Below are positions 29,565-54,645 of a stretch of DNA of 64,000 nt, in pieces. The notes below the pieces were generated by a model. That model ran no database searches. It saw only the letters and a list, made by a program, of their open reading frames with translations, and was not told the origin of the DNA. Position 1 is the stretch's first letter, and each line of letters opens with the position of its first letter. The stretch is taken from assembly GCF_058153355.1 (NCBI RefSeq), contig NZ_CM177019.1; one strand, given 5' to 3'. The translations under genes and the position numbers were made by a program.

Positions 29565-29725
29565 ATTTCCCTCAGAGAATATAAAAAAGAACAATTAACG
29601 CATATTATGAAATGCCATGATGCAGTGCAATTTCCTTATTTATATAACGACATATTGTTTTTTATATACTTTCCGAAGTGTGCTACCTGGCTTTTCAACA
29701 GGTCGAGGTTTATCATATTGAAATA

Positions 29726-37965: not shown

Positions 37966-38180
37966 GCCGAGTCCTTTGTGCGAGGAAAAATATCAGTATG
38001 GCCTGGTGATGGGAAAAAGGGCAGAAAATGTTGATGGTTTGTTACTTCCCAATAAATCACATATTTATCATGGTGATATAAATATTTTCCTAATTGTTCT
38101 TATCTGACAGATATCTCACTTAAGGCTTTCTTATAAATCTGTAGGGTTTGCACCATGAGTGCGGTAGCTATGAGGTTTAT

Positions 38181-40493
38181 ATGTCCTCAGAAGGATTACG
38201 TTTCACGCTGTCGGTGGCCGGTATCGTGGAGATGGCGACGGCGGTGGTGAGCTTCCGTCTGTACCAGCACCACTGCACGCCGTTCATCCTGGATGTGGAT
38301 ATCGCCAGCGGGCTGCCCGACCTGACGGCGGAGGATTTTCTGGAGAAGAGCGCGGTGCTGACGGTCTGGCAGGGTGATATCCCGCAGCGTTACGTCAGCG
38401 GTATCGTGACGGAGGTGCAGCTCGGTGAGAACAACGACTGGCAGATGCGTTATTCCCTGAGCATCAGCCCGCCGCTGTGGCGGGCAGGGTTACGGCAGAA
38501 CTTCCGTATCTTCCAGCAGCAGGACATTCAGACGATATCAGCACAGCTTCTGAGAGAGAACGGGGTGACGGCGTGGATGCCGCTGTTCTATGAGGCGCAC
38601 CCGGCGCGGGAGTTCTGCGTGCAGTACGGGGAGAGCGACCTGGCATTCCTGACCCGGCTGTGGGCGGAGGAAGGTATCTTCTTTTATGAGCGCTGCGGTC
38701 AGGAAGGGCCGGAGCAGAAGCTGGCGGTGTGTGATGACGTGGCGGGGCTGACGGGAATGGGGGCGCTGGCGTTTAACCCGAATACCACGACCGGGGGAAC
38801 GACGGAGTACATCAGTGAGTTTCGTTACCGTGCGCAGATAAGCGTGGCGTCGGTGGAGACGCAGGATTATACGTTCAAAACGCCGGGGTGGCCGGGGTAC
38901 TACAGCCATGACGGGGAGAGCCTGAACGGGCAGGGAACGCAGTACGAGATATTTGATTATCCGGGGCGTTTCAAGGATGAGCAGCATGGCCAGGATTTTG
39001 CGCGTTACCAGACGGAAGGGTGGCGGAACGGGGCGGAGACGGCGAGCGGGGTGTGTAACACGGCGCGGCTGTGGCCGGGAACGCGGTTCCGGCTGACGGG
39101 CCATCCCTCAGAGACGCTGAACCGGGAATGGCAGGTTGTGGGAAGCACACTGCGGGGAGAACAGCCGCAGGCGCTGCACGGGAGTCACGGTGAAGGGACG
39201 ACACTGAGCAATCAGTTTGAGGTGATACCGGCAGACAGGACGTGGCGTCACGCGCCGCTGCCGAAGCCGAAGGTGGACGGCCCGCAGAGTGCCATCGTGA
39301 CCGGGCCGAAGGGTGAGGAGATATTCTGCGACGAGCATGGCCGGGTACGGGTGAAGTTTCACTGGGACCGTTATCACGGGATGACGGAGGAGAGTTCGTG
39401 CTGGATACGGGTGTCGCAGGCATGGGCGGGACCGGGGTTCGGCAATCTGGCGATACCGCGTGTGGGTCAGGAAGTGATAGTGGACTTTCTGAACGGCGAC
39501 CCGGACCAGCCCATTGTGACGGGGCGGACCTACCATGAAGATAACCGTTCACCGGGGGATTTACCGGGCACGCGGACGCAGATGACCATCCGCTCGAAGA
39601 CCTATAAAGGAAGCGGCTTTAATGAACTGCGTTTCGAGGATGCGACGGACAGTGAGCAGGTGTATATCCACGCGCAGAAGAACATGGACACGGAGGTGCT
39701 TAACGACCGGACGACGGACGTGAAGCATGACCATACGGAGACCATCGGTAACGACCAGAAGATAAGGGTGGTGAAGGGGCAGACGGTTGAGGTCGGCACC
39801 AGAAAAGAAGGGGGTCACGACCAGAGTATCACGGTGGCGAACGACCGGCGCATAACGGTACGTAATGACCAGACGCTGAAGGTGACGAATGACCGGACGG
39901 TGAGCGTGAGTCACGATGACGGCCTGTATGTCAGAAACGACCGTAAAGTGACGGTGGAAGGGAAGCAGGAGCATAAGACGACGGGGAACCATATCAGCCT
40001 GGTGGAGGGAAAGCACAGTCTGGAGGTGAAGGGCGACCTGGCGGAGAAGGTGAGTGGCGCGCTGGGGATCAAGGTGGACGGGGATATCGTGCTGGAGAGC
40101 AGCAGCCGGATAAGCCTGAAAGTGGGCGGCTCGTTCGTGGTGATACACTCTGGCGGTGTGGATATTGCGGGGCCGAAGATAAACCTCAACGGGGGAGGCA
40201 GTCCGGGGACGCCAGTACAGACGTTACAACCGGTGGTACTGGAGGCGCTGGAGGATGAGAATGATGATGAGAACCCTGAAAAATATACTCTCCAGTTCCA
40301 TTTTACAGACGATGACGGGATACCGTATTCAGAGACACGCTACATTGCCTTCTTTGAGGACGGCACGCAGACGCGAGGGGAGACGGATGAAAATGGGTAT
40401 ACGGAAACATTCTCCACTGACAGCGAGCAGACAATCGAAGTCAGATTGTTGCATTTGAATATCGATATGATATGGGGAGGGATTAATGAATAG
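38181..40493 (+). CDS. vgrG: Type VI secretion spike protein VgrG (copy 1) with ~80-aa C-terminal extension (possible transthyretin-like adaptor domain)
   Basis: 770 aa from MSSEGLRFTLSVAGIVE…; gp27-like N-domain, gp5-like OB/beta-helix region with repeated VxVxV-type strands (…ITVANDRRITVRNDQTLKVTNDRTVSVSHDD…), then …VVIHSGGVDIAGPKINLNGGGSPG and an extension …YTLQFHFTDDDGIPYSETRYIAFFEDGTQTRGETDENGYTETF…. No YD repeats, so not Rhs. Confidence 0.9.
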   Translation: MSSEGLRFTLSVAGIVEMATAVVSFRLYQHHCTPFILDVDIASGLPDLTAEDFLEKSAVLTVWQGDIPQRYVSGIVTEVQLGENNDWQMRYSLSISPPLWRAGLRQNFRIFQQQDIQTISAQLLRENGVTAWMPLFYEAHPAREFCVQYGESDLAFLTRLWAEEGIFFYERCGQEGPEQKLAVCDDVAGLTGMGALAFNPNTTTGGTTEYISEFRYRAQISVASVETQDYTFKTPGWPGYYSHDGESLNGQGTQYEIFDYPGRFKDEQHGQDFARYQTEGWRNGAETASGVCNTARLWPGTRFRLTGHPSETLNREWQVVGSTLRGEQPQALHGSHGEGTTLSNQFEVIPADRTWRHAPLPKPKVDGPQSAIVTGPKGEEIFCDEHGRVRVKFHWDRYHGMTEESSCWIRVSQAWAGPGFGNLAIPRVGQEVIVDFLNGDPDQPIVTGRTYHEDNRSPGDLPGTRTQMTIRSKTYKGSGFNELRFEDATDSEQVYIHAQKNMDTEVLNDRTTDVKHDHTETIGNDQKIRVVKGQTVEVGTRKEGGHDQSITVANDRRITVRNDQTLKVTNDRTVSVSHDDGLYVRNDRKVTVEGKQEHKTTGNHISLVEGKHSLEVKGDLAEKVSGALGIKVDGDIVLESSSRISLKVGGSFVVIHSGGVDIAGPKINLNGGGSPGTPVQTLQPVVLEALEDENDDENPEKYTLQFHFTDDDGIPYSETRYIAFFEDGTQTRGETDENGYTETFSTDSEQTIEVRLLHLNIDMIWGGINE
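39163..40040. repeat. Near-identical ~0.9-kb vgrG 3'-core repeat, copy 1 of 3
   Basis: Sequence and six-frame antisense ORFs are identical to 43497-44374 and 49075-49900 (e.g. ORF 39602-39799 = 43935-44132 = 49459-49656). Confidence 0.85.
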
Positions 40494-40576
40494 AGAGTGA
40501 CCGCCTGTAATTGGCGTGTTTTTGCATAAATGGAACAGGGTTTTGTAGTGAAAACATATTGCTAAGGAGGATTTAT

Positions 40577-41422
40577 ATGGGAGATGGAAAGGGTAGTACG
40601 AGCGGAAAAAGCCAGAGCGGTGAACAGTGTGTAGTTTTAAAGGAGGGAAAAATTACTAATGATTTTAAAATAATGATGAGAGAGGCTCTGAAGGCGCTGA
40701 TGGCTGTATTGAAGAAAAGAGTAGAAGATCTTGGTGATAAATGGGGAGAGGAACAAAATCAGGAGTTTATAAATATATTTGGTATTGATGGAAATACTTA
40801 TATTAAATTAGAGTTCCCTTTCGGGGGGCGTAAGGTTATGTTTCCAGAGAATATAAAGGCAAGGGATTATATGAGAAATGGCGTTACTCGCCTGTATGAG
40901 ATATGTGGGGAATTATCTGTGGAAGGTGATTGTGTAGACGTTACTATTCATGACCATTTCCTCAAACGTGATGCCAATTGTAATCTTGTTCTTAATGACA
41001 AAGGGGGTAATGAATATGTTGACAAAGACGTAATCAGGCCCAAAACCGGTAACTTTGTGAATTGTACAGATAATGACGCTTATGCTGCCAATGTAACTTA
41101 CGATCAGATTTTGGGTGTAAAACCTGGAGGCTTTAAAAGTTTGGTAAGTATAACTATAGGACAAAGATTTATAGATAGGCCACCCACTGGGAAAAACTCT
41201 AAGGCATCGACACTCTGCCATGAACTATCTCACTTTATAAGGTACGGGGATTCATTTAAGTTTGGAGGCATGTGGACGGAAGATATGCCGGTAGATATAG
41301 AGTATAATACAGGTGACGAATATATTGTTCATGCCACTAAATTAAAAAATGATAAAAAATCAGAACTATTTCAGAATGCATATAATATCGAACGTTATTT
41401 CGAGATTCATGTACCATATTGA
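40577..41422 (+). CDS. Putative T6SS effector, HExxH zincin-like metallopeptidase candidate
   Basis: 281 aa from ATG 40577 (RBS aaggagg upstream); AT-rich; HELSH motif at 41219-41233 followed by …GGMWTEDMPVDIEYNTGDEY…; no signal peptide; directly downstream of vgrG-1. Confidence 0.55.
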   Translation: MGDGKGSTSGKSQSGEQCVVLKEGKITNDFKIMMREALKALMAVLKKRVEDLGDKWGEEQNQEFINIFGIDGNTYIKLEFPFGGRKVMFPENIKARDYMRNGVTRLYEICGELSVEGDCVDVTIHDHFLKRDANCNLVLNDKGGNEYVDKDVIRPKTGNFVNCTDNDAYAANVTYDQILGVKPGGFKSLVSITIGQRFIDRPPTGKNSKASTLCHELSHFIRYGDSFKFGGMWTEDMPVDIEYNTGDEYIVHATKLKNDKKSELFQNAYNIERYFEIHVPY

Positions 41423-41446
41423 TGCTTTTATTTGACGGGGGAGTAT

Positions 41447-42355
41447 ATGCTTGCTAGATGGATTGTTTTTATTGTTTTTTTTGCGCATCCAATATTTGCT
41501 TATGATATCTCTGGCGATTATGCTGTTCATTACAGATATGGGAAGTTATATTGGAATGGAGTAATGGACAAACTTGGTGTCTATCCTCGTGTAGAGCCGA
41601 CAAGGCTTAATTATTATGATTATTATGATGATCTTTCAGCCTATGCTGTTTTTCAATATTATACTATCAGTAAAAATGAGAGTCAGTATAATCAAGATAA
41701 AAATAAAATATATCTTCATCTTTCCGTGCATCAGAAAGAAAATATTGTAGCAGCTGCAGTGGTTTTATCGAATAAAAGCCAGGGATCTTATTTTGTTCAT
41801 CGACTAACTCTTCCTCTTGACGTTAACGGCGGGCCTTACTCTTCCTTGTGTAGTGGTGTGTTTATACCGATAATGGATAACATTCAGTTGGATTTTTTAA
41901 AAAAAACAAAATGTAGCTTTGGTGAATGGAAAAATAAATCCGTTTGGCACGAGATATTAACAGGGAAAGAGCTATCCTTTGATGTCATATTGAACGATTA
42001 TTATGCCTTTTTACCGGGCATTCATCGTTATAATATAGGAACGGTAGAATTTACAATAGTTAATCAAGAGTGGTTTACAGAACAATGTATATATGAGTAT
42101 TTTCTTTCTATTATGAACTGGCGGGCAGAAAGTGAGTGTACTAATCCTATAGATAAAATAAGATATGGTATAGAGGAGTGGCGGGTTTGGAGAATTTGTG
42201 GACCTTATCGTGGGTCAGGTCTATTTCAGGATTTTTTAGCACGCTTTGGCTATCATGGCGGTAATGATAATATATTCAAAATAAGATCAAATCAGGTTGT
42301 GGTTACTATTGATGGGGATAGGGCATCTCCTCCTTATTCGTTGAGGAATTATTAA
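41447..42355 (+). CDS. Putative cognate immunity protein (secreted/periplasmic) for the HExxH effector
   Basis: ~303 aa with N-terminal signal peptide MLARWIVFIVFFAHPIFA; AT-rich; starts 24 bp after the effector stop; no recognisable family. Confidence 0.45.
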   Translation: MLARWIVFIVFFAHPIFAYDISGDYAVHYRYGKLYWNGVMDKLGVYPRVEPTRLNYYDYYDDLSAYAVFQYYTISKNESQYNQDKNKIYLHLSVHQKENIVAAAVVLSNKSQGSYFVHRLTLPLDVNGGPYSSLCSGVFIPIMDNIQLDFLKKTKCSFGEWKNKSVWHEILTGKELSFDVILNDYYAFLPGIHRYNIGTVEFTIVNQEWFTEQCIYEYFLSIMNWRAESECTNPIDKIRYGIEEWRVWRICGPYRGSGLFQDFLARFGYHGGNDNIFKIRSNQVVVTIDGDRASPPYSLRNY

Positions 42356-42510
42356 TGTTAACTTATTGTCATGGCTACAATTCGTTGGTTTTCCTGTTGA
42401 GATGATAATATATATGAGAAAAACAGGCAATGAACCAGTGAGAGAATATCAGAAGATACGGTCAACATCGGTTAATTACTTTTTCCTGTAGCGATACCAG
42501 GGAGGTCATC

Positions 42511-44712
42511 ATGTCATTAAAAGGGCTGCGCTTTACGCTGACGGTGGACGGACTGGTGCCGGAGACGTTTGCGGTGGTGGATTTCCGCCTCACGCAGGCA
42601 TACTCATCGCCGTTCGTCCTGGATGTGGACGTTGCCAGCGACTCGTTCCGCCAGACGGCGGAGAAGCTGCTGGAGAAGGGGGCCGTACTGACCATCTGGC
42701 AGGGTGGCACGGCGCTGCGTTATGTGAGCGGTGTGGTGTCGGGGTTCGGCATGAAGGAGCACAACGGCTGGCAGATGCAGTACCACCTTCAGATACGTCC
42801 GCCCCTGTGGCGCAGCGGGCTGCGCCAGAACTACCGAATCTTCCAGCAGCAGGACATTCAGGCCATCTCCGCCACGCTGTTAAACGAGGACGGAGTGACG
42901 CAGTGGACGCCGCGCTTTTATGAGAGCCACCCGGCACGGGAGTTCTGCGTCCAGTACGGTGAAAGCGACATGGCGTTTCTGACCCGGCTGTGGGCGGGGG
43001 AAGGCATCTTCTTTTATGACAGATACGCTGACGACAGCCCGGAGCAGACGCTCACGCTGTGCGATGATGTGGCGGGCCTGCCGGTGTACGGGGAGATACC
43101 GTTTAACCCGAACACCCGTGAGGTGACGACGGCGTGCATCAGCCTGTTCCGCTACCAGGCGCAGGTGCGGCCCTCGCAGGTGCGTTCAAAAGACCACACG
43201 TTTAAGGTGCCGGACTGGCCGGGTATTTACATTGAGGATGCTGAAAACCTCAACGGGCAACTGAAGCAGTACAAAATCCTGGACTGGCCGGGGCGCTACA
43301 AGGACGAGCAGCATGGTCAGGACTTTACCCGCTACCGGCTGGAAGGGCTGCGTAACAGTGCTGAAACCGCCACAGGTATCAGTAACTCCCCGGCGCTGTG
43401 GCCGGGACGGCGGTTCACCTTGACGGGGCATCCGGTACAGGGAGCGAACCCGAACCGTGAGTGGCAGGTGGTGAGCAGCACGCTGACGGGGAGCCAGCCG
43501 CAGGCGCTGCACGGGAGTCACGGTGAAGGGACGACACTGAGCAATCAGTTTGAGGTGATACCGGCAGACAGGACGTGGCGTCACGCGCCGCTGCCGAAGC
43601 CGAAGGTGGACGGCCCGCAGAGTGCCATCGTGACCGGGCCGAAGGGTGAGGAGATATTCTGCGACGAGCATGGCCGGGTACGGGTGAAGTTTCACTGGGA
43701 CCGTTATCACGGGATGACGGAGGAGAGTTCGTGCTGGATACGGGTGTCGCAGGCATGGGCGGGACCGGGGTTCGGCAATCTGGCGATACCGCGTGTGGGT
43801 CAGGAAGTGATAGTGGACTTTCTGAACGGCGACCCGGACCAGCCCATTGTGACGGGGCGGACCTACCATGAAGATAACCGTTCACCGGGGGATTTACCGG
43901 GCACGCGGACGCAGATGACCATCCGCTCGAAGACCTATAAAGGAAGCGGCTTTAATGAACTGCGTTTCGAGGATGCGACGGACAGTGAGCAGGTGTATAT
44001 CCACGCGCAGAAGAACATGGACACGGAGGTGCTTAACGACCGGACGACGGACGTGAAGCATGACCATACGGAGACCATCGGTAACGACCAGAAGATAAGG
44101 GTGGTGAAGGGGCAGACGGTTGAGGTCGGCACCAGAAAAGAAGGGGGTCACGACCAGAGTATCACGGTGGCGAACGACCGGCGCATAACGGTACGTAATG
44201 ACCAGACGCTGAAGGTGACGAATGACCGGACGGTGAGCGTGAGTCACGATGACGGCCTGTATGTCAGAAACGACCGTAAAGTGACGGTGGAAGGGAAGCA
44301 GGAGCATAAGACGACGGGGAACCATATCAGCCTGGTGGAGGGAAAGCACAGTCTGGAGGTGAAGGGCGACCTGGCGAGGAAGATTACCGGTGCGCTGGGA
44401 ATGAAGGTCCGGAATGAAATCGTACTGGAGAGTGGCGGTAAAATCACCCTAAAGGTGGGTGGTTCGTTTGTGGTCATCCATTCAGGGGGCGTGGACATCG
44501 TCGGGCCGAAAATCAATCTCAATAGCGGCGGTAGTCCGGGAACGCCGGTGCCGACGCTACGACCGGCGGTTTTGAAAGCGCTGGCAGATTATGACAATGG
44601 CGGACCTGGAACTGAAGGGGCGGAGCCACCACGGAAAAGTGTACAGGAAGCCTTTGATCCTCCCCAGCAGGATAAGGTACCGCCACAACGGCCGGGAAGA
44701 TTCTCACGATAA
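42511..44712 (+). CDS. vgrG: Type VI secretion spike protein VgrG (copy 2)
   Basis: 733 aa from MSLKGLRFTLTVDGLVPETFAVVDF…; same architecture as copy 1; short Pro/Gln-rich C-terminal tail. Confidence 0.9.
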   Translation: MSLKGLRFTLTVDGLVPETFAVVDFRLTQAYSSPFVLDVDVASDSFRQTAEKLLEKGAVLTIWQGGTALRYVSGVVSGFGMKEHNGWQMQYHLQIRPPLWRSGLRQNYRIFQQQDIQAISATLLNEDGVTQWTPRFYESHPAREFCVQYGESDMAFLTRLWAGEGIFFYDRYADDSPEQTLTLCDDVAGLPVYGEIPFNPNTREVTTACISLFRYQAQVRPSQVRSKDHTFKVPDWPGIYIEDAENLNGQLKQYKILDWPGRYKDEQHGQDFTRYRLEGLRNSAETATGISNSPALWPGRRFTLTGHPVQGANPNREWQVVSSTLTGSQPQALHGSHGEGTTLSNQFEVIPADRTWRHAPLPKPKVDGPQSAIVTGPKGEEIFCDEHGRVRVKFHWDRYHGMTEESSCWIRVSQAWAGPGFGNLAIPRVGQEVIVDFLNGDPDQPIVTGRTYHEDNRSPGDLPGTRTQMTIRSKTYKGSGFNELRFEDATDSEQVYIHAQKNMDTEVLNDRTTDVKHDHTETIGNDQKIRVVKGQTVEVGTRKEGGHDQSITVANDRRITVRNDQTLKVTNDRTVSVSHDDGLYVRNDRKVTVEGKQEHKTTGNHISLVEGKHSLEVKGDLARKITGALGMKVRNEIVLESGGKITLKVGGSFVVIHSGGVDIVGPKINLNSGGSPGTPVPTLRPAVLKALADYDNGGPGTEGAEPPRKSVQEAFDPPQQDKVPPQRPGRFSR
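43497..44374. repeat. Near-identical ~0.9-kb vgrG 3'-core repeat, copy 2 of 3
   Basis: See copy 1. Confidence 0.85.
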
Positions 44713-44721
44713 GGACTGAAC

Positions 44722-47211
44722 ATGAAAATCAGCCATCCCATCAGGGATAAAGAAGGCAAAGAGTTTCGCTCACTGGATGAGATAATGCGGCTTATTGACA
44801 AAGAAGCGCACGGAACCTGGCTGCTGGGTGGAAACGGGCTGTGGCACGGCGGGATACATATCAGTGACGTGTCTAATCCGTTATCAGCCCTGAAACCGGA
44901 TACCGCCGCTACCGGAGAACCGGTTCCTCTTCAGTTTATGGCCGATGGCACCATTGCGGCGTACCGGATAAATAATGATTACCTGAAAGGCCCCTACAAA
45001 GGGCAGCAACTCCGTTACAGCAGCACATTTGTTCTGGTGAAATCGCAGTGCCAGCCAGACCCGCAAAAAAAAGAAAGCTGGCTGGAATTTTACTGTCTCT
45101 ATATGCATCTGGCCCCGGTGAACGATTATCCCGGCTCCCCCTGCTATAAAGTTAAAACCGGGCATGGTGGCATATTGCTGCACCGATACATCCCGGGAAA
45201 GAACGGCCTTCCCGAGGGGCAGGAAAGCGGAGATCATGCCACGTACTGGATACCCCCGAAAATCAGCGGAAACAGGACACTTAATGCGGGAGATCGGTTT
45301 GTGTCATCCCGGACCGGACGTTTTTACGTGACCAATAACGGCCAGCCGGTCCTGACGACATTCGGACTGGTTCGCCTGCTGGAAGGCAATAAACCGGGGA
45401 ATGAGCAGTACTGGGTGACCCTGGATCCGGATCTGATGGAGTCAGATGGCGAAATACAGATGCTGATGCCTGAGTGGATGCAGAAGGCGAAGGCAAAAGG
45501 CATTTTTGACTCGGTACAGACGGTCGACGAAACGGAAGAGTGGAAAGTCAGTGCCGGAACACCGGTCGGATTTATGGGATGCGAGGATTATCCTGGCGAG
45601 GGAAGCGGTGAGATTGAGCGCGAGTGGTTCGTCCATCTGGAGGTTCTGAGTACAGACCCGAATATGCCAAAGTTCTTATCCAACCCGGCAGGCGTTAAGG
45701 GAGAAAAACGGACTGTTCTGGCACCAAAAGGGATAATTTTATACACCCGGCAGGCCGTTCCGGGACAGGAGGTATTTACCGCAACCGCAGCCACGCTGGG
45801 TGCTCAGCGCGTTCTTCCGCGGGAAGCCACGACACCAGTCACGGATGAATCGCAGCAGTGGTGGTTTAATATCACCGGAACCGGCTGGCTGCCACAAAAG
45901 GATGTTGAAGAGGCCGGACAGTATGATTTACTGAAGCTGGGTTTTCAACCGCTGGAGGAGAACAGCAGCGGTGACATGACGTACAGCCCGTACGAAGGAT
46001 GGGTGCCGGAAGCGTTTGACTCAATAAGCCGTGCCGCAGAACAGGGAGATGAGTGGCTGTATGAGCAGGTACCGCCCTTTTATCGTGAGCTGATGGCGGG
46101 TATGGATCAGGACGGTGATGGAAAAGTGACGGAGGAAGAGATCAGACAGGCGCTGATCGTGCGTGAACCACTGGTGAGAAATGTGGTGAATCATCTGATA
46201 GTTAAACACCACAGCGAATGGTACGGAGGGCGCTCGACAGGGCGGTGGGAAGGATTTTATAAAGATCTGGATACAGAGGAAGTGGCATACTGTGAGAAGT
46301 GGCAGCTGGATCTGGAGTGGATGAGCGGGGTATCTCCGTTTAATAGTGATGATGCTGTGTGGCATTTTCATCCGGTTGTGTTTTTGGACGCTATTAATTC
46401 CAAATCTGTGTGTGCTTGCAACAGAGATATAACATTAGATGAATTAAAAAAAGTTGCTCCTGCAGTAAGTGAAGGTCTTCTCAAAAGGTACCTCTACGAT
46501 ATAAATGCAGGGTTTATTCGGTTTGGTATGACCACTTGTAGAGAAAAAGCCCATTTTCTTGCTCAAATTATTCACGAGAGCGGTTATTTTAGATATACCA
46601 AAGAAATTAATGGTGAATCAGCTTCATATAGTCCGTGGTATGGCCGAGGCTTAATACAAGTTACAGGCGAAAGTAATTACACCGCCTATGGGGAATATAT
46701 CAATGAGGACGTAACATCTTCAGATTCCGCAAGAGATAAACTCATATCCTCCCCACATTGCGTATTATCTGCGTTTTGGTATTTCAATATATTCAAAAGA
46801 ATAAATGAAGATGCTAAAAATGATGATTTTAATAAAATTACAGTAGTGATTAATGGAGGGTATAATCATTATGATGAACGGTTGTCGATATTTAATAAAT
46901 TGGTTACCTCACTTGCTGCCGAGCATTTAAATCAGAAAGAAATGAACGACGATTTCTTGTTTGATGATAGTGACGTATATGATAATAAAGTATATGCTTT
47001 GGGATGGGGGATATGGCATGATCCTGATAGCTCCCGAAGAGGGACGATCAAGAGTAACGAAGAAGCATTAAAAGGTTATAGAAGGGCGAAAGAATTAATT
47101 GACCTGCATCCGTTTCCTCAGGAAGGGCGTGAGGGTGATAGAAAAGTATATGGAATAGAAAAAAGGAATATATCCACATTTGTAGAGAGACGAATAACTG
47201 AACTGGAGTAA
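44722..47211 (+). CDS. Large T6SS effector: possible M23/LytM-like N-region, EF-hand calcium-binding motif, C-terminal GH19/lysozyme-like peptidoglycan hydrolase domain
   Basis: 829 aa; EF-hand loop DQDGDGKVTEEE (~46102); C-terminal …REKAHFLAQIIHESGYFRYTKEINGESASYSPWYGRGLIQVTGESNYTAYG… (from ~46537) matches the GH19 / 'predicted chitinase' catalytic signature; N-region WHGGIHISDV…ADGTIAAY…YMHL resembles a divergent M23 peptidase (tentative). Confidence 0.7.
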   Translation: MKISHPIRDKEGKEFRSLDEIMRLIDKEAHGTWLLGGNGLWHGGIHISDVSNPLSALKPDTAATGEPVPLQFMADGTIAAYRINNDYLKGPYKGQQLRYSSTFVLVKSQCQPDPQKKESWLEFYCLYMHLAPVNDYPGSPCYKVKTGHGGILLHRYIPGKNGLPEGQESGDHATYWIPPKISGNRTLNAGDRFVSSRTGRFYVTNNGQPVLTTFGLVRLLEGNKPGNEQYWVTLDPDLMESDGEIQMLMPEWMQKAKAKGIFDSVQTVDETEEWKVSAGTPVGFMGCEDYPGEGSGEIEREWFVHLEVLSTDPNMPKFLSNPAGVKGEKRTVLAPKGIILYTRQAVPGQEVFTATAATLGAQRVLPREATTPVTDESQQWWFNITGTGWLPQKDVEEAGQYDLLKLGFQPLEENSSGDMTYSPYEGWVPEAFDSISRAAEQGDEWLYEQVPPFYRELMAGMDQDGDGKVTEEEIRQALIVREPLVRNVVNHLIVKHHSEWYGGRSTGRWEGFYKDLDTEEVAYCEKWQLDLEWMSGVSPFNSDDAVWHFHPVVFLDAINSKSVCACNRDITLDELKKVAPAVSEGLLKRYLYDINAGFIRFGMTTCREKAHFLAQIIHESGYFRYTKEINGESASYSPWYGRGLIQVTGESNYTAYGEYINEDVTSSDSARDKLISSPHCVLSAFWYFNIFKRINEDAKNDDFNKITVVINGGYNHYDERLSIFNKLVTSLAAEHLNQKEMNDDFLFDDSDVYDNKVYALGWGIWHDPDSSRRGTIKSNEEALKGYRRAKELIDLHPFPQEGREGDRKVYGIEKRNISTFVERRITELE

Positions 47212-47216
47212 TTGAT

Positions 47217-47627
47217 ATGAAAGTTAATTTATTGGTTTTACTGTTTTGTTTGGTGCCTTGTTGTTTATTGGCTAAACAACAAACAACGGTAGGCTGTTTT
47301 AGCGCTGGGAAAACAAATTTAAAGTTTGTTGAAATATCGTCTGGCGATATTTTTTTAGGTTATGTGATTTATGAGAAATCCTCAAAATTTATACCTCTTG
47401 CGTTTATAAATAAATTAGAAGTGACTTTCGATGACAGGCCTTCTGAATTTTCTTATGCATGGAGCGAGGTTGTAAATGGAAAAATTAATGGGTTGTATGT
47501 TGTTTCCACACAAGGTGCAAGATTTAATTTGTTTCATTATAAATCAATAAGTGGGAAAACAACTGAGTTTGAAGAAAATATTGAGGCATATAATGATGAT
47601 GGTACTGATTGCAAATGGACTGGATGA
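47217..47627 (+). CDS. Putative periplasmic immunity protein for the lysozyme-like effector
   Basis: 136 aa with N-terminal signal sequence MKVNLLVLLFCLVPCCLLA; begins 5 bp after the effector stop; AT-rich. Confidence 0.45.
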   Translation: MKVNLLVLLFCLVPCCLLAKQQTTVGCFSAGKTNLKFVEISSGDIFLGYVIYEKSSKFIPLAFINKLEVTFDDRPSEFSYAWSEVVNGKINGLYVVSTQGARFNLFHYKSISGKTTEFEENIEAYNDDGTDCKWTG

Positions 47628-47775
47628 CCATTGTGCAGTTTTTTATGAAATCGATGCTGTGTTATTAAAATAATAATGCGACTAGGTTGAATTTGTTTAT
47701 TATTAATTTAAATGTTTTATGATTTTAAGTTAGACATGAATAACTGACTGGAAAATTATTTTTGAGGGATATCGT

Positions 47776-49070
47776 ACAGGCAGGCAGGGAAAGATCACGT
47801 AACGCTGCTTTTTTGTACTATACAATTCGCATTTTATGTTTGAAAATTGAGATATTCCTCATTACCTGAAGCTGTTTTTTATTGCTTATACATGATCAAA
47901 TACTCCTTACATAATTAAGGAGAACAAAATGGTACTTAAAAAATTGATGGAACATATTTCTATTATCCCCGATTACAGACAAGCCTGGAAAGTGGAACAT
48001 AAATTATCGGATATTCTACTGTTGACTATTTGCGCCGTTATTTCGGGTGCAGAAGGCTGGGAAGATATAGAGGATTTTGGGGAAACACATCTCGATTTTT
48101 TGAAGCAATATGGTGATTTTGAAAATGGTATTCCTGTTCACGATACCATTGTCAGAGTTGTATCCTGTATCAGTCCTGCAAAATTTCACGAGTGCTTTAT
48201 TAACTGGATGCGTGACTGCCATTCTTCAGATGATAAAGGCGTCATTGCAATTGATGGAAAAACGCTCCGGCACTCTTATGACAAGAGTCGCCGCAGGGGA
48301 GCGATTCATGTCATTAGTGCGTTCTCAACAATGCACAGTCTGGTCATCGGACAGATCAAGACGGATGAGAAATCCAATGAGATTACAGCTATCCCAGAAC
48401 TTCTTAACATGCTGGATATTAAAGGAAAAATCATCACAACTGATGCGATGGGTTGCCAGAAAGATATTGCAGAGAAGATACAAAAACAGGGAGGTGATTA
48501 TTTATTCGCGGTAAAAGGAAACCAGGGGCGGCTAAATAAAGCCTTTGAGGAAAAATTTCCGCTGAAAGAATTAAATAATCCAGATCATGACAGTTAAGCG
48601 ATTAGTGAAAAGAGTCACGGCAGAGAAAAAATCCGTCTTCATATTGTTTGCGATGTCCCTGATGAACTTATTGATTTCACGTTTGAATGGAAAGGTCTGA
48701 AGAAATTATGCGTGGCAGTCTCCTTTCGGTTAATAATAGCAGAACAAAAGAAAGAGCCAGAAATGACGGTCAGATATTATATCAGTTCTGCTGATTTAAC
48801 CGCAGAGAAGTTCGCCACAGCAATCCGAAACCACTGGCACGTGGAGAATAAGCTGCACTGGCGTCTGGACGTGGTAATGAATGAAGACGACTGCAAAATA
48901 AGAAGAGGAAACGCCGCAGAATTATTTTCAGGGATACGGCACATCGCTATTAATATTTTAACGAATGATAAGGTATTCAAGGCAGGGTTAAGACGTAAGA
49001 TGCGAAAAGCAGCCATGGACAGAAACTATCTCGCGTCAGTCCTTGCGGGGAGCGGGCTTTCGTAATCTTG
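47776..49070 (+). mobile_element. ISAs1-family (H-repeat / ISEc1-like) element inserted into vgrG copy 3
   Basis: ~1.3 kb; contains the H-repeat transposase gene; left-end sequence (gtacaggcagggaaagatcac…) recurs at 51856 and ~53976; right end abuts vgrG sequence beginning mid-gene (…FEVIPADRTW…). Confidence 0.7.
47929..49065 (+). pseudogene. ISAs1-family transposase (H-repeat protein, YhhI-like) with an in-frame TAA at 48595-48597
   Basis: ORFs 47929-48597 and 48712-49065 are in the same frame and both match the H-repeat protein ([58 protein letters not shown]… and …[41 protein letters not shown]…); full span would encode 378 aa. Confidence 0.8.
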
Positions 49071-49074
49071 CCCT

Positions 49075-49900
49075 GGAGGTGATACCGGCGGACAGGACGT
49101 GGCGTCACGCGCCCCTGCCGAAGCCGAAGGTGGACGGCCCGCAGAGTGCCATCGTGACCGGGCCGAAGGGCGAGGAGATATTCTGCGACGAGCATGGCCG
49201 GGTACGGGTGAAGTTTCACTGGGACCGTTATCACGGGATGACGGAGGAGAGTTCATGCTGGATACGGGCGTCGCAGGCATGGGCGGGACCGGGGTTCGGC
49301 AATCTGGCGATACCGCGTGTGGGTCAGGAAGTGATAGTGGACTTTCTGAACGGCGACCCGGACCAGCCCATTGTGACGGGGCGGACATACCATGAGGACA
49401 ACCGTTCACCGGGGGATTTACCGGGCACGCGGACGCAGATGACCATCCGCTCGAAGACCTATAAAGGAAGCGGCTTTAATGAACTGCGTTTCGAGGATGC
49501 GACGGACAGTGAGCAGGTGTATATCCACGCGCAGAAGAACATGGACACGGAGGTGCTTAACGACCGGACGACGGACGTGAAGCATGACCATACGGAGACC
49601 ATCGGTAACGACCAGAAGATAAGGGTGGTGAAGGGGCAGACGGTTGAGGTCGGCACCAGAAAAGAAGGGGGTCACGACCAGAGTATCACGGTGGCGAACG
49701 ACCGGCGCATAACGGTACGTAATGACCAGACGCTGAAGGTGACGAATGACCGGACGGTGAGCGTGAGTCACGATGACGGCCTGTATGTCAGAAACGACCG
49801 TAAAGTGACGGTGGAAGGGAAGCAGGAGCATAAGACGACGGGGAACCATATCAGTCTGGTGGAGGGAACGCACAGTCTGGAGGTGAAGGGCGACCTGGCG
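49075..49900. repeat. Near-identical vgrG 3'-core repeat, copy 3 of 3
   Basis: See copy 1. Confidence 0.8.
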
Positions 49901-51492
49901 AGGAAGATTACCGGTGCGCTGGGAATGAAGGTCCGGGATGAAATCGTACTGGAGAGTGGTGGTAAAATCACCCTGAAGTGGGTGGCTCGTTTGTGGTCGT
50001 TCATTCTGGTGGTGTGGATATTGTCGGACCGAAAATAAATCTGAATTGCGGGCGCAGTCCGGGGACGCCGATAAATACACTACAACCGGCAGTTATGGAC
50101 GCTCTGGCTGACGAGCAGTATGACAGAGGGAATGCTGGCGGCGGGAATGACGGAGAGCCTAGTGATGAGGATGAATCAGAAGGTGGAGAAGAAGACAAGG
50201 ACGATTCAGATGAACTGGTAATTCCTGTATACGCAAAATCTTGTCTGAAGGAGAAAGGCTGCACTGATGCTGGTACGACCATGGAGCCATCGAAACATTT
50301 TGGTGATATGGCTCTATTTGCCCAGCCAGTGGAGGATGACTGTTGCGGCTATGGTACACACTATCATGACGATGAAGTGGAGCAACTTGCGCAGTCAGCA
50401 AAAAAAACCTCAGGAGCGAACTCACTGACGGGGGAAATGACAGTTGCGTCAGCGGGTGTTGCGGTTCCACTAGCGGCGGAACAGTCTGCGGGAGTTTTAA
50501 CTCGCGTATGGGGAACATTAGGGGCATGGGGTGGAGAAGGTTTTTTAAGTGTATCAAAAACGGTGCCAGCCCTTGGTGTCCTAGTATCAGCACTATATCC
50601 AATACCTGCCGGTGAAGGTAGTGATAAAGTTCCTGGACGGGATGAACAGTGGCTCGAAAATGAGCTACGTCGTAAAGCGCAATCTGGAGAGACGGCAGCT
50701 ACGCGGGCGCGCTTTCTCTTTCAGCGGAATACTGCTGGTGAATTGAGGACATACGGATACCACACACCCGCAGGTTCGGAACTTGAAGGTGTTCGGGTAG
50801 CATTGATGGAGTGGAATAAGGAATTTTCCCGTTATGAATTTTCACCTGTGTCTGATTCGGGACCAAAAATATTTTGGACGCCTGCAAAGCCAGAAGGTTC
50901 AGAGCAGCCCATACACACCGGAACTCCTGTCGAACCAGTTGATCTACCTGATATTTATGTTAATCCGATACCCGATGAAAAAACAGATATCACCACGCCG
51001 CCTTCTCCAATGCCGGAGGAGCGAAATTTTAATGACTGGATACTTGTCTTTCCTGACGGTGCGGAATTAACACCAATATATGTGTATCTGAAAACTGCAA
51101 GGGATGTAGCGGGAACAGTAACAGGTAAGGGGGAGGTGTTAGCAGGTACAGGAAGATGGCTGTCGCAGGCGGGGAAAAGCTTAGGAGTGCCAATTCCACA
51201 ACAGGTCGCAAATAAACTTCGGAGTAAGTCATTTAACAATTTTGATGAATTCATGGCAGCTTTCTGGACTGCTGTAGGTGAATGTCCAGAACTATTGAGC
51301 CAATTTAATAAAGCTAACCAAACGTTGATAAAGCGTGGACGCGCACCTTATACTATATCAAGACAAAGAGTTGGGGGGCGAGGTACATTTGAAATTCATC
51401 ATATTGACGAAATCCAATATGGGGGAGAAGTCTATGATATTGATAATCTTAGAGTAAACACACCTAAAAACCACATACGATTGCATAAATAA
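49075..51492 (+). pseudogene. vgrG: vgrG copy 3, 'evolved' VgrG with C-terminal colicin E9/pyocin-type HNH DNase domain; 5'-truncated by ISAs1 and carrying a -1 frameshift near 49976
   Basis: Starts mid-gene at the ISAs1 right end; vgrG frame runs to ~49976 where ctgaagtgggtgg has lost one G relative to copies 1/2 (ctgaaggtgggtgg); downstream frame continues through a linker to …GVPIPQQVANKLRSKSFNNFDEFMAAFWTAVGECPELLSQ…RQRVGGRGTFEIHHIDEIQYGGEVYDIDNLRVNTPKNHIRLHK (~51169-51489), which aligns closely with the colicin E9 DNase domain. Confidence 0.8.
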
Positions 51493-51505
51493 AAAGGAGG
51501 TAGTA

Positions 51506-51778
51506 ATGGAGTTTAAAAATAATCTAGAAGATTATACGGAAGATGAATTTATCGAACTTCTAAATAATTTTTTTGAACCACCTGAGGAATTGCATGGCGA
51601 TAAGTTGTCGAAGTTTATTGATGATCTTGTAAGTCATTTTATTAGAATCACTCAGCACCCAGATGGTAGTGATTTGATATTCTATCCATCTGAAGATAGA
51701 GAAGATAGTCCCCAAGGGATTGTTGATGAGTTAAAACGATGGCGAGCATCGCAGGGGCTAGGATGCTTTAAAATATAA
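51506..51778 (+). CDS. Colicin E9-type DNase immunity protein (Im9-like)
   Basis: 90 aa: MEFKNNLEDYTEDEFIELLNNFF…HFIRITQHPDGSDLIFYPSEDREDSPQGIVDELKRWRASQG aligns along its length with Im9 (MELKHSISDYTEAEFLQLV…[35 protein letters not shown]); strong RBS aaggagg; 13 bp after the DNase stop. Confidence 0.85.
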   Translation: MEFKNNLEDYTEDEFIELLNNFFEPPEELHGDKLSKFIDDLVSHFIRITQHPDGSDLIFYPSEDREDSPQGIVDELKRWRASQGLGCFKI

Positions 51779-51855
51779 TGAAAATAAATACTCATCATAT
51801 TTTATTAAAATGATTGGTGTTTTTGTTATTAACCTTAAACCACTTCCTGAGAAGG

Positions 51856-52301
51856 TGGTACAGGGAAAGATCACCAGAAGTACACTTTTTGTACTAAATA
51901 ATTCGCATTTTATGTTCAATAATTGAGATATTCCTCATTACCTGAGGCTGTTTTTTATTGCTTATACATGATCAAATACTCCTTACATAATTAAGGAGAA
52001 CAAAATGGAACTTAAAAAATTGATGGAACATATTTCTGTTATTCCTGATTACAGACAAGCCTGGAAAGTGGAACATAAATTGTCGGATATTCTACTTTTG
52101 ACTATTTGCTCCGTCATTTCTGGTACAGAAGGCTGGCAAGATATAGAGAATTTTGGGGAAACACATCTCGATTTTTTGAAGCGACATGGTGATTTTTGAA
52201 ATGGTATTCCTGTTCACATACCATTGCCAGAGTTGTATCCTGTATCAGCCCTGCAAAATTTCATGAGTGCTTTATTAAAAGGAAACCAGGGGCGGCTTAA
52301 T
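51856..52301 (+). mobile_element. Degraded ISAs1/H-repeat remnant (left end plus internally deleted transposase fragment) fused to effector sequence
   Basis: Left-end sequence and transposase N-terminus ([58 protein letters not shown]…) present, then a deletion to the internal …KGNQGRLN segment, which joins directly to effector-2-like sequence at ~52302. Confidence 0.6.
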
Positions 52302-53465
52302 ATCACCGGAACCGGCTGGCTGCCACAAAAGGATGTTGAAGAGGCCGGACAGTATGATTTACTGAAGCTGGGTTTTCAACCGCTGGAGGAGAACAGCAGC
52401 GGTGACATGACGTACAGCCCGTACGAAGGATGGGTGCCGGAAGCGTTTGACTCAATAAGCCGTGCCGCAGAACAGGGAGATGAGTGGCTGTATGAGCAGG
52501 TACCGCCCTTTTATCGTGAGCTGATGGCGGGTATGGATCAGGACGGTGATGGAAAAGTGACGGAGGAAGAGATCAGACAGGCGCTGACCGTGCGTGAACC
52601 ACTGGTGAGAAATGTGGTGAATCGTCTGACAGTCAGACACCACAGCGAGTGGTACGGCGGTCGCTCGACGGGACGCTGGGAAGGGTTTTATAAAGATCTG
52701 GACACCGAGGAAGTGGCATACTGTGAAAAGTGGCAGCTGGATCTGGAGTGGATGAGCGGGGTGTCTCCGTTTAATAGTGATGATGCTGTGTGGCATTTTC
52801 ATCCGGTTGTGTTTTTGAATGCTATTAATAATAGCAATTACCCAAAAACTCCTGTGAATAATGAACTTATTCCATTGGAATTTTTACGATTTTATAACGG
52901 AGATACCATTGATGATGCAGACTATGAAAATGCTGCAAGGACACTACAATGCGAAGTGGCTGCAATTAAAGCTGTTGCAAAAACTGAAACTGGTAGTTCC
53001 GGTAGCTATTTTAAATTTGAACAAGAAGATGATTACGTCCCCTCAATTCTTTTTGAAAGACATCATTTCCATCGATATACGAATGGTGTGTATGATTCTC
53101 AACCTGATATTTCCAACAGCCGTTCTGGCGGTTATGGAACACGATCGGAGCAATATCAAAAATTACTTCGTGCATATGTTTTAGATAAGCAAGCTGCGCT
53201 TAAATCGGCATCGTGGGGTAAATTTCAGATATTGGCTTCAAATTACCAAGCTACCGGGTACTCTTCGCCCGAAGAGTTTATAATATCGATTTCAGAGTTA
53301 GAGAAAAACCATCTGGCGGCATTCATTAACTTCATAAAATCTAATCCTGTATTATTGCGTGCTATTAGAGATAAAGATTGGCTTAACTTTGCTCTATGTT
53401 ATAATGGGCAAAGTCAGCGAGGATATGATGACAGAATAAGGGCTAATTATGAGCAATATAGATAG
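52302..53465 (+). CDS. Orphan effector 3' module: conserved effector mid-region fused to a muramidase-like (PF11860/DUF3380-type) C-terminal domain; 5' end replaced by the H-repeat remnant
   Basis: 52302-52817 is ~97% identical to effector-2 45871-46386 (NITGTGWLPQKDVEEAGQYDLLK…EF-hand…VWHFHPVVFL), after which the sequence diverges into …AAIKAVAKTETGSSGSYFKFEQEDDYVPSILFERHHFHRYT…SASWGKFQILASNYQATGYSSPEEFI…NGQSQRGYDDRIRANYEQY, resembling the N-acetylmuramidase family (recalled motif pattern, not searched). Confidence 0.55.
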   Translation: MTGTGWLPQKDVEEAGQYDLLKLGFQPLEENSSGDMTYSPYEGWVPEAFDSISRAAEQGDEWLYEQVPPFYRELMAGMDQDGDGKVTEEEIRQALTVREPLVRNVVNRLTVRHHSEWYGGRSTGRWEGFYKDLDTEEVAYCEKWQLDLEWMSGVSPFNSDDAVWHFHPVVFLNAINNSNYPKTPVNNELIPLEFLRFYNGDTIDDADYENAARTLQCEVAAIKAVAKTETGSSGSYFKFEQEDDYVPSILFERHHFHRYTNGVYDSQPDISNSRSGGYGTRSEQYQKLLRAYVLDKQAALKSASWGKFQILASNYQATGYSSPEEFIISISELEKNHLAAFINFIKSNPVLLRAIRDKDWLNFALCYNGQSQRGYDDRIRANYEQYR

Positions 53466-53898
53466 AGCATTAATTTTTATTTTTTTATCTGGAATTCCCT
53501 GGACTCTACACGCAGGAAATAATTATTTTTTATGTAATACATCCAAAGGAACTTTGTCATTAACAAGTTTTGGTGAAACGTTGATTTATGAAATGAATAG
53601 TCAGCATGGGAATAAATTTCAATTCATTTCAGATGGACCAATGTATTCAGGATTTTTTTATAATCATTACTCCAGATTTCAAACGGATTACTTTAGCGTT
53701 AGTTTTATTCAAAGTGGATATAAGTACTCCGTGTTTAGCAATTACGACAACGGTAGTAACATGCGAGGGGTTAGTGTCATTGATATGAAAACAAAAAAAG
53801 AATACGTTTATAATTGCAAAGATTATAAAGTGGACAGGCTTTATAATCTGAAAAAAAAGCTTAAATGTGATATTAATAATGTACTAAGTTGTCAGTAA
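53449..53898 (+). CDS. Putative periplasmic immunity protein for the muramidase-like toxin module
   Basis: 149 aa, hydrophobic N-terminus MSNIDRALIFIFLSGIPWTLHA; overlaps the effector stop by 17 nt; very AT-rich. Confidence 0.4.
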   Translation: MSNIDRALIFIFLSGIPWTLHAGNNYFLCNTSKGTLSLTSFGETLIYEMNSQHGNKFQFISDGPMYSGFFYNHYSRFQTDYFSVSFIQSGYKYSVFSNYDNGSNMRGVSVIDMKTKKEYVYNCKDYKVDRLYNLKKKLKCDINNVLSCQ

Positions 53899-53975
53899 AT
53901 TGTATCTTACAACGTTCGGGCGGTACGATTTACTGAAGCTGGCTTTTCATAGGCTGGAGGAAAACAGCAAGGGTA

Positions 53976-54645
53976 ATAAAGGTAAAGACCATATAACGCC
54001 GATTTTTTGCACTAAACAATTAGCACTAAATGTCCAATAATCAAGATATCCCTTATTATTTAATAAGTGTTTTCATAGCTTATATATATTCAGACACTCC
54101 TTACATAAACAAGGAGAAAAAATGGAACTTAAAAAATTAATGGAGCATATTTCTACTGTCCCGATTACAGACAAGTCTGGAAAGTAGAGTATAAATTATC
54201 AGATATCCTAGTGCTGATTATTTTCGCCATCCTTTCCGGAGCTGAAGGATGGGAAGATATAGAGGATTCTGGTGAGACTCATCTCGATTTGTTGAAGCAA
54301 TATGGTGATTTTTAATATGGTATTCCTATTCACGATATCATTGCCAGAGTTGTGTCCTGTATCAGTCCTGGAAAATTTCACGAGTTCTTTATTAGCTGGA
54401 TGTGTGACTGTCATTCTTCAGATAATAAAACCATCATCGCAATAGATGGAAAAGCACTCCAGCACTTTTTTGATTAGCATCGTCGCAGAGGAACAATTCA
54501 TAATCATTGCGATCTCGACGATGTATAGTCTGATCCTGCGGCAGAACAAGACGGATAAAAAATCTAATGAGAGCACACTCATCAAGAACTTCTCAACCTA
54601 ATGAATATTAAAGAAAAATCATCGCAGCCAATGAAGTAATATGCA
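53976..54645 (+). mobile_element. Heavily degraded ISAs1/H-repeat remnant (multiple stops/frameshifts, 3' truncated)
   Basis: Recognisable but broken transposase N-terminus ([11 protein letters not shown]…[28 protein letters not shown]…); preceded at 53921-53975 by another fragment of the effector mid-region (…YDLLKL…LEEN…). Confidence 0.55.

Follow-up and report, generated by a model that had tools for sequence, protein, structure and literature searches.

An orphan vgrG island, very probably of type VI secretion cargo, in the rhsA slot of Escherichia coli

The DNA analyzed here, 64,000 nucleotides (nt) from contig NZ_CM177019.1 of the RefSeq assembly GCF_058153355.1 (hereafter the window), carries a 16.25-kb insert at 38150-54402, bordered by yibF and yibH, which takes the place of the K-12 segment rhsA-yibV. 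This insert very probably serves a type VI secretion system (T6SS) of the T6SS-1 kind as an auxiliary ('orphan') cargo island, lodged in the slot that is taken by the PAAR-Rhs toxin gene rhsA in almost all other E. coli. It is predicted to hold two complete modules (A and B), each with a spike gene (vgrG), an effector gene and an immunity candidate, together with two remnants (C and D) that are dead for delivery and keep intact immunity genes.

Position of the island and its spike genes

The borders of the insert were located by comparison with K-12 MG1655, with the following features at its flanks:

37357-37965, minus strand: yibF, left flank
37966-38180, no strand: intergenic region between yibF and vgrG-A, common with the K-12 yibF-rhsA intergenic region up to 38149 (blastn, 97.2% identity)
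54698-55834, minus strand: yibH, right flank

On the left, homology to K-12 ends at 38149, 44 nt upstream of the rhsA ATG, and on the right it restarts at 54403, at the K-12 pseudogene yibU, which is a remnant of the insertion sequence ISAs1. The K-12 segment displaced in this way measures 7.8 kb (rhsA-yibA-yibJ-yibG-yibS-yibW-yibV). According to the listing of open reading frames (ORFs) and their translations, all island genes between yibF and yibH lie on the plus strand, and the GC content of the toxin cassettes is 31-38% vs. 53-65% for the vgrG genes.

The content of the window was searched with proteins of known systems. K-12 RhsA, employed as a tblastn query against the whole window (E<=1e-3), gave no match, and neither did 18 T6SS-1 core and accessory proteins of E. 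coli strain N96, including Hcp, TssA-M, TagH, VasI, VasL, PAAR, Tla1 and Tle1; overall, no Rhs, T6SS core, PAAR or adaptor gene was found in the window. Outside the island, and apart from an IS110-type insertion and a yiaT-W-like block, the window is collinear with the closest complete genome, whose DNA here is of the housekeeping kind (xyl, yia, aldB, selAB, mtl). An earlier note, made from the letters of this DNA, had placed an orphan spike-effector island between yibF and yibH in the K-12 rhsA position, without a YD-repeat Rhs core and without tss genes nearby, and all of this is borne out.

A survey of 5,426 complete E. coli genomes revealed a vgrG gene adjoining yibF in three of them (~0.06%), namely N96, MFDS1022581 and MFDS1019527, which are also the genomes closest to the window (80% of the query covered, 97.6-97.8% identity). 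Modules A, B and D were confined to the same three, and in most of the genomes homology to the window stops at the very same base, 38149. This locus comparison, which the earlier note had proposed, also showed that the fragment arrangement at 48204-51860 is missing from those three genomes. Within the paper collection searched, none named vgrG together with yibF.

The first two vgrG genes of the island are intact and share a tract of identical sequence:

38181-40493, plus strand: vgrG-A, 770 amino acids (aa), with a C-terminal extension of ~75 aa
42511-44712, plus strand: vgrG-B, 733 aa, with a proline-rich C-terminal tail
39162-40043 (in vgrG-A) and 43495-44376 (in vgrG-B), plus strand: tract of 882 nt with 100% identity

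Both proteins matched the T6SS-specific profile TIGR03361 over its full length (6.7e-177 for VgrG-A, 3.4e-176 for VgrG-B), with scores three times the curated cut-off. VgrG-A also matched the Pfam families Phage_GPD (PF05954, 4.4e-75), Phage_base_V (PF04717) and Gp5_trimer_C (PF22178), as well as the Pseudomonas aeruginosa VgrG1 structure 4mtk (9e-93). The gp27-like hub and the gp5-like OB fold and beta-helix were, accordingly, detected in VgrG-A by Pfam and TIGR03361 and in VgrG-B by its full-length TIGR03361 match. As for the three vgrG genes that the earlier note had counted (38181, 42511 and 49075), together with the profile search for gp27/gp5 homology that it had suggested, the first two proved to be full-length VgrGs, but the third is a doubly disrupted fragment, starting at 49076, that lacks gp27.

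VgrG-A is 94.7% identical over its full length to a VgrG encoded in the T6SS-1 cluster of N96, and VgrG-B is 93.9% identical, its C-terminus excepted, to the second VgrG of that cluster. The exact sequence of VgrG-A matched no protein on record. In N96 and MFDS1022581, the T6SS-1 cluster is located between yafV and aspV. Since the island VgrGs are this close to those of the N96 cluster and T6SS-1 is present in island-bearing relatives, the use of a T6SS-1 machine by the island, as predicted here, is well supported by homology, though only indirectly. VgrG proteins do have the gp27/gp5 fold of phage baseplate hubs, and the Pfam names are phage-derived, so the genes were also considered as parts of a prophage tail or of an extracellular contractile injection system (eCIS). 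That reading was rejected, with hardly any probability left to it, on the basis of the TIGR03361 scores, the 94-95% identity to VgrGs within a T6SS-1 cluster and the lack of phage or eCIS genes in or near the island, where the neighbours are toxin/immunity pairs instead.

Outside the 882-nt tract, vgrG-A and vgrG-B are only 62-81% identical, which points to the tract as the product of a recent gene conversion. The two copies form perfect direct repeats 4.3 kb apart, and recombination between them would remove module A and form a hybrid vgrG.

Predicted toxins and immunity candidates of modules A and B

Module A comprises, downstream of its vgrG, the following genes:

40577-41422, plus strand: effector A, 281 aa, predicted M35/aspzincin-like zinc metalloprotease
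41447-42355, plus strand: immunity candidate A, 302 aa; N-terminus hydrophobic and signal-like, ribosome-binding site (GGAG) of its own

Effector A carries an HExxH motif (H216-E217-H220), and its residues H216, E217, H220 and D237 were invariant in 11 homologues; in a wider set of 37 sequences, the motif was again invariant and the aspartate, which in M35 peptidases is the third zinc ligand, was at least 90% conserved. Its AlphaFold2 (AF2) model reached a mean predicted local distance difference test (pLDDT) value of 89.8, and the top Foldseek match of this model was the peptidyl-Lys metalloendopeptidase 1ge6 (9.5e-5, prob 1.0, template modelling score (TM) on the target 0.76), followed by further M35 matches to AsaP1 (1e-3) and deuterolysin (0.056). 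The family is small, with 155 matching cluster representatives among 1.84 billion (E<=1e-3).

The arrangement of module A is also found at the main clusters of other strains. Effector A is 32% identical to an 'M35 family metalloendopeptidase' encoded beside a main-cluster vgrG in N96, and immunity candidate A is 33% identical to the product of the gene that follows M35 in the T6SS-1 clusters of N96 and 23CRST031. The effector/immunity pair recurs after a main-cluster vgrG in two T6SS-1 clusters at 31-34% identity, and the N96 cluster at aspV repeats the gene order of vgrG, M35 and a secreted protein of ~300 aa. Immunity candidate A has a hydropathy of 2.5 and gave no sequence match in Pfam, NCBIfam or the PDB.

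Effector A and immunity candidate A lie in one frame, separated by a single TGA (41420-41422). Read-through of this codon, or a split gene, was rejected as an explanation because homologous effectors stand alone (250-280 aa) and the ORF that follows is preceded by a ribosome-binding site of its own and opens with a signal-like segment. At the equivalent position, N96 has TTA (L001 ~7119-7121), and RefSeq lists there one 'M35 family metalloendopeptidase' of 594 aa; this point change from TGA to TTA would, therefore, have created a toxin-immunity fusion annotated as one protein. The 308-aa protein labelled 'transposase' in the N96 T6SS-1 cluster (L008 24899-25825) has a signal-like N-terminus and shares 33% identity with the 302-aa immunity candidate; the label is probably wrong.

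Module B comprises, downstream of its vgrG, the following genes:

44722-47211, plus strand: effector B, 829 aa, TseP-like, with a conserved N-region of ~560 aa that includes an EF-hand, followed by a GH19-type lysozyme domain
47217-47627, plus strand: immunity candidate B, 136 aa, starting 5 nt downstream of effector B; N-terminus signal-like

Effector B begins 9 nt downstream of vgrG-B. In searches against the PDB, its C-terminal domain matched GH19-type endolysins (2e-13) and, over residues 630-729, the domain at the C-terminus of TseP, a T6SS effector (8XCL, 7.3e-8). A PHROG endolysin was matched at 5e-32, and PHROGs added nothing beyond endolysin matches. The EF-hand was assigned at residues 455-478 (Pfam EF-hand_1, 8.7e-4). 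Further, H42, H46 and H129 of effector B are conserved with a spacing like that of H19, H23 and H109 in TseP, a likeness seen at the level of spacing. Homologues in the Enterobacterales have the first ~560 residues in common and end in at least six different peptidoglycan-hydrolase C-termini, among them GH19, PF11860 muramidase, GH108, M23 plus phage lysozyme, pesticin-like muramidase, CHAP and GH24. Cupin and vicilin matches returned by Foldseek for the N-region were dismissed as meaningless (TM<0.1), and neither an M23 nor an amidase fold is assigned to this region. Immunity candidate B has a hydropathy of 3.0 and matched no family in Pfam, NCBIfam or PHROGs.

The C-terminal extension of VgrG-A is probably a TTR-like cargo-binding domain, judging from a match of its 75 residues to the TTR cargo-binding domain of VgrG1 from enteroaggregative E. 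coli (EAEC). We propose that VgrG-A and VgrG-B would become part of the spike of a T6SS-1 machine whose genes lie at aspV/yafV, and that each would carry its neighbour effector non-covalently on its own C-terminal extension (TTR-like for VgrG-A, a proline-rich tail for VgrG-B). The two effectors would then act in the periplasm of the target cell, as a protease (A) and as a cell-wall hydrolase (B), while the signal-peptide-bearing neighbour proteins would protect sister cells.

Remnant modules C and D and the history of the locus

The distal part of the island is made up of three ISAs1 elements and the two remnant modules:

47785-49075, plus strand: full ISAs1 (H-repeat/ISEc1-like), 1,291 bp, with both inverted repeats; transposase ORF at 47929-49065
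49076-51492, plus strand: 3' fragment of a vgrG::Pyocin_S::Col-Pyo_DNase gene, from codon 347 to the end, with a 1-nt deletion at 49977
51506-51778, plus strand: DNase immunity protein, intact, 90 aa, cytoplasmic type
51861-52302, plus strand: ISAs1 5' remnant, 419 bp plus a 27-bp internal part (internal deletion), fused to the middle of an effector gene
52224-53465, plus strand: module D toxin, which begins in the ISAs1 remnant, continues with effector codons from ~381 (EF-hand region) and ends in an N-acetylmuramidase domain
53449-53898, plus strand: immunity candidate D, 149 aa, overlapping the end of the module D toxin; N-terminus signal-like
53980-54626, plus strand: old ISAs1 5' remnant, 80% identical to the full copy; from 54403 it corresponds to K-12 yibU, the right border of the island

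The fragment at 49076 represents the 3' two-thirds of a 1,151-aa gene. It starts inside the conserved tract that vgrG-A and vgrG-B have in common, directly abuts the right inverted repeat of the full ISAs1, and is shifted in frame by the loss of one G at 49977. Only the gp5-like part of the spike survives; since the entire gp27 domain is missing, the product is predicted to be unable to form a spike. The fragment is 98.3% identical to an intact 1,151-aa ORF at the rhsC site of N96, an orthologue that carries PF04717 and PF22178. The surviving extension matched Pyocin_S (1e-31) and the HNH DNase family Col-Pyo_DNase (PF21431, 5.5e-49, positions 1-124 of 124); NF047924, which stands for the T6SS DNase effector VPA1263, was matched in part. 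As vgrG-C starts at codon 347 and the DNase is fused to the VgrG C-terminus, the toxin of this module is not a separate effector gene. The immunity protein that follows matched Colicin_Pyocin (PF01320, 1.5e-30, positions 1-82 of 82), and, therefore, both partners of this DNase/Im-family pair give full-length Pfam matches. A second 1-nt deletion relative to N96 was noted at 51490, at the end of the DNase ORF and at or beside the stop codon.

The DNase cassette is present in four complete E. coli genomes, and its position is that of rhsC (kdp-ybfA...ybgA) in N96, the one examined among these, and in 8/8 draft or other assemblies listed. In all eight of these contigs the same 90-aa immunity protein lies downstream of the vgrG::DNase gene, whose ORF is intact at this position (ybfA...ybgA) in N96 and in six of the eight. 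RefSeq splits the N96 locus (L005 17938-21393) into a pseudogene and a distinct pyocin protein of 403 aa, whereas the frame is actually open for 1,151 codons and other assemblies annotate vgrG::pyocin::DNase as one gene.

Module D has no vgrG, and the N-terminal ~380 aa of its effector are lost. Its muramidase domain is well recognized (Pfam Muramidase, 1.1e-43), and the preceding segment (52287-52829) differs from the corresponding part of effector B (45856-46398) at 21 of 543 positions, i.e., the two are 96% identical. An intact 749-aa form of this effector exists at the same locus in another strain (P0013/L010), where immunity candidate D is conserved beside it. This candidate has a hydropathy of 2.1 and gave no match in Pfam or NCBIfam. 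The earlier note had assigned to each vgrG a distinct AT-rich effector/immunity pair; the AT-richness was confirmed by the GC values given above, but the third toxin turned out to be a VgrG extension and the fourth module, devoid of vgrG, had been overlooked.

Both remnant modules are bounded upstream by ISAs1 sequence, and all three ISAs1 elements share one orientation. The full copy has terminal inverted repeats of ~20 nt that match with four mismatches, and its transposase ORF of 378 codons is interrupted by a single in-frame stop at codon 223. Homologous DNA in RefSeq relatives is annotated as 'ISAs1 family transposase'. One near-complete and two degraded ISAs1 elements, as described earlier, are, thus, indeed what the island holds: the 1,291-bp copy with both repeats and two 5' remnants. 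In other genomes, a group II intron reverse transcriptase/maturase gene was observed just upstream of the ISAs1 remnant that ends the N96 rhsC-site island (L005 25413-26735) and the T6SS-1 cluster (L008 15526-16848), with a further copy at L013 10858-12180 and likewise in several other assemblies.

Comparison of strain sequences shows three nested natural states of the locus. In the first, represented by a read-set contig of another E. coli (L010), N-domain::muramidase stands directly beside the yibH end, the intact 749-aa effector being followed by its immunity gene, the old ISAs1 remnant and yibH; this contig matches the window on either side of a 6.4-kb gap. In the second, represented by N96 and the MFDS strains, which match the window except for 48204-51860, a GH19 C-terminus with its immunity gene and ISAs1 would have pushed the muramidase part downstream. 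The third state is that of the window, in which a patch of ~4 kb would have been copied from an rhsC-site island where ISAs1 had disrupted the vgrG::DNase gene. Besides the fragment of that gene and its immunity gene, the patch includes the 3' part of ISAs1 and an ISAs1 remnant.

The similarity of the repeats to the two N96 sites indicates where the patch may have been joined. With the N96 rhsA-site remnant, the 5' part of the full ISAs1 (47785-48203) shares 98.1% identity. For the remnant at 51861-52278, the identity is 98.3% to the rhsC-site remnant of N96 vs. 91.4% to the rhsA-site one. According to a map of single-nucleotide polymorphisms (SNPs), rhsC-type sequence gives way to rhsA-type sequence somewhere between 52265 and 52587. 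The crossovers would, by homologous recombination, have fallen within ISAs1 on the left and within the shared effector segment (52265-52587) on the right. A history of three steps, namely GH19 displacement, ISAs1 disruption and recombination, is the simplest reading of these sequences. The three locus states and the SNP-mapped patch from the rhsC-site island lend good support to the suggestion of the earlier note that the island is an actively recombining arsenal.

Alternatively, module C (48204-52300) could have been misplaced during assembly, with the ISAs1-disrupted cassette truly residing at the rhsC site and joined here through the ISAs1 5' part and the EF-hand segment. Both joins are indeed within repeated sequence (one in the 419-bp 5' part of ISAs1, the other in the shared effector segment), the arrangement was seen in no other genome examined, and the cassette occupies the rhsC site in N96 and in the eight other contigs listed. 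However, real homologous recombination would leave an identical pattern, the repeats are just 91-96% identical and would be resolved by most assemblers, and the ISAs1-vgrG junction at 49075/49076 is novel and needs a real insertion event somewhere in the genome. We, hence, regard an assembly error as quite improbable and retain recombination as the origin of the patch.

Remnants C and D, although undeliverable, would still provide immunity against relatives with intact toxins. Remnant D could, in addition, recombine onto effector B through the shared 543-bp segment and bring about a toxin switch, as in orphan modules of Rhs and contact-dependent inhibition (CDI) systems. Of the alternatives given in the earlier note, dependence on a T6SS elsewhere or decay, both would apply. 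Decay is apparent in the distal modules C and D, which are predicted to be delivery-dead, but not in the yibF-proximal modules A and B, which are intact.

Elsewhere in the window, two segments that are not in N96 were noted. A 1.3-kb insertion between avtA and ysaA (10807-12086) contains a 326-aa ORF resembling an IS110-family transposase. The block at 26125-30033 comprises genes for a MipA-like protein of the outer membrane (246 aa), a regulator of the LysR type (324 aa), an HlyD-like protein (378 aa) and a small membrane protein; the DNA of its HlyD-like gene is 74% identical to yibH, and the block is a yibH-yibI paralogue that resembles K-12 yiaT-yiaW.

Delivery, significance and comparison with known systems

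Several results weigh against the interpretation of the insert as a working cargo island. Effector A had no match in Pfam-A, even at E<=10, or in NCBIfam, for which reason we name it M35-like and not a member of the curated M35 family, and its sequence matched M35 structures in the PDB only at E=0.04. The N-region of effector B was modelled by AF2 with a pLDDT of 64.7, and Foldseek retrieved no fold match for it from the PDB. The TTR-like assignment of the VgrG-A C-terminus stands on the EAEC VgrG1 domain, its sole and weak match in the PDB (E=0.035), and we infer the immunity role of the 302-, 136- and 149-aa proteins from their position and signal-like N-termini. A scan for promoters and terminators gave 36 signals vs. 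a shuffled expectation of 27.6±5.4, which is not above chance. Finally, tssM of N96 has a stop at codon 1119 of 1175, and in the strain under study, read here only in the window, the T6SS may be absent or broken.

Taken to its end, this line of argument would make the island a silent relic in a strain with no working T6SS, persisting as an immunity array and as recombination material from which nothing is fired. The lack of promoter signal and the stop in tssM of the relative N96 would fit such a relic, as would the loss of two of the four modules and the inactivation of the ISAs1 transposase itself. Nonetheless, vgrG-A, vgrG-B, both effector genes and all four immunity ORFs are uninterrupted, and all 13 T6SS-1 core genes are annotated as intact in MFDS1022581. 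Recent exchange is shown by the 882-nt identical tract, though this is no proof of gene use. On balance, a silent relic appears unlikely, and a T6SS-1 cargo island remains our preferred interpretation. With regard to tssM, the gene is flagged with an 'internal stop' in two unrelated strains, N96 (L008 44775-48302) and 23CRST031 (L006 1-2312), and is annotated as intact in MFDS1022581; these stops could be either recurrent inactivation or a tolerated truncation.

The island offers a clear case of arsenal evolution, with three natural intermediates, crossovers placed within a few hundred bases and one cassette traced from rhsC to rhsA. It also indicates that the rhsA slot can change its type of toxin, from PAAR-Rhs to VgrG-cargo modules, with the upstream region unchanged. 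Three candidates for further study emerge: a small, uncharacterized branch of M35-like T6SS proteases with a putative periplasmic immunity partner of ~300 aa, an enterobacterial TseP-like family whose exchanged cell-wall hydrolase domains are of six kinds or more, and orphan immunity genes, which may decide which relatives coexist. The current view of T6SS biology is left unchanged by these findings. As a tentative generalization, possible rather than probable, the rhsA and rhsC sites of E. coli could be interchangeable T6SS cargo slots, between which cassettes would be moved by way of the portable homology that ISAs1/H-repeat remnants and conserved effector segments provide, with VgrG-borne TseP-like effectors using orphan-module switching of the Rhs/CdiA type. 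If this were true, the long-noted link between H-repeats and Rhs would be functional and not incidental.

Both orphan vgrG islands and toxin displacement that leaves immunity arrays behind are established concepts. What is new here is the position in the rhsA slot, the rarity (~0.06%), the poorly characterized M35-like branch and the well-resolved recombination history. Auxiliary or orphan vgrG islands are known as the Aux clusters of Vibrio cholerae, the vgrG islands of P. aeruginosa and the vgrG1 and vgrG2 islands of enterohaemorrhagic E. coli (EHEC) (PMC7216683, PMC8855297, PMC4067218). In line with these, the present island combines vgrG, cargo effector and immunity gene away from the machinery, with a VgrG C-terminus that would be specific to the effector. 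In contrast with them, it sits in the rhsA slot, with a yibF-vgrG junction found in 3/5,426 genomes, and PAAR, Rhs and DUF4123/DUF1795 adaptor genes are absent from it; in the EHEC study, the rhsA slot was occupied by an 'orphan' rhs gene, with no vgrG.

The M35-type T6SS toxins P. aeruginosa VgrG2b and E. coli PAR are each neutralized by a neighbouring immunity protein (PMC10673891), and the C-terminal domain of VgrG2b forms an M35-type metallopeptidase toxin pair with PA0261 (PMC6899460). Module A resembles these in that an HExxH zinc protease is encoded next to a VgrG or fused to it, and the model of effector A matches the M35 fold. Periplasmic toxicity and its neutralization by the downstream gene product, features of the known toxins, are predicted for the present pair. 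Unlike VgrG2b, effector A has no detectable sequence match to the solved VgrG2b structure; further, there is no DUF2345 adaptor gene between vgrG-A and effector A, as opposed to known M35 cassettes, and no more than 31-32% identity is reached with the other E. coli M35 cassettes examined.

TseP of Aeromonas dhakensis is a chimeric amidase-lysozyme T6SS effector with an EF-hand that binds its own VgrG directly (PMC11893102; PDB 8XCL). Effector B shares with it the EF-hand, the C-terminal GH19-like lysozyme domain, the location directly after vgrG, a C-domain GC content below that of the N-domain and a similar length (~830 aa for TseP, as estimated from its catalytic residue E663). In contrast to TseP, the family of effector B swaps C-terminal hydrolases at the EF-hand region, leaving an orphan module behind.

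Module C, in which Pyocin_S and an HNH DNase extend the VgrG C-terminus and are followed by an Im-type protein, is comparable to evolved VgrGs with nuclease extensions, to the colicin E9 and pyocin S2 DNase-Im pairs and to VPA1263. S-type pyocin extensions occur on Salmonella VgrGs as well. Unlike evolved nuclease VgrGs, module C keeps the 3' part only and would not be a functional spike.

With regard to the displacement of toxins, sequential effector displacement is known from V. cholerae. In Rhs and CDI systems, orphan toxin-immunity modules arise by C-terminal displacement (PMC3150448). The present locus is similar in that a downstream module keeps a conserved piece, an alternative toxin tip and an immunity gene, that direct repeats permit toxin switching and that immunity genes accumulate. 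It differs from the Rhs and CDI cases in that the displaced protein is a TseP-type VgrG cargo effector, and not Rhs or CdiA, and in that ISAs1 remnants lie at the joins.

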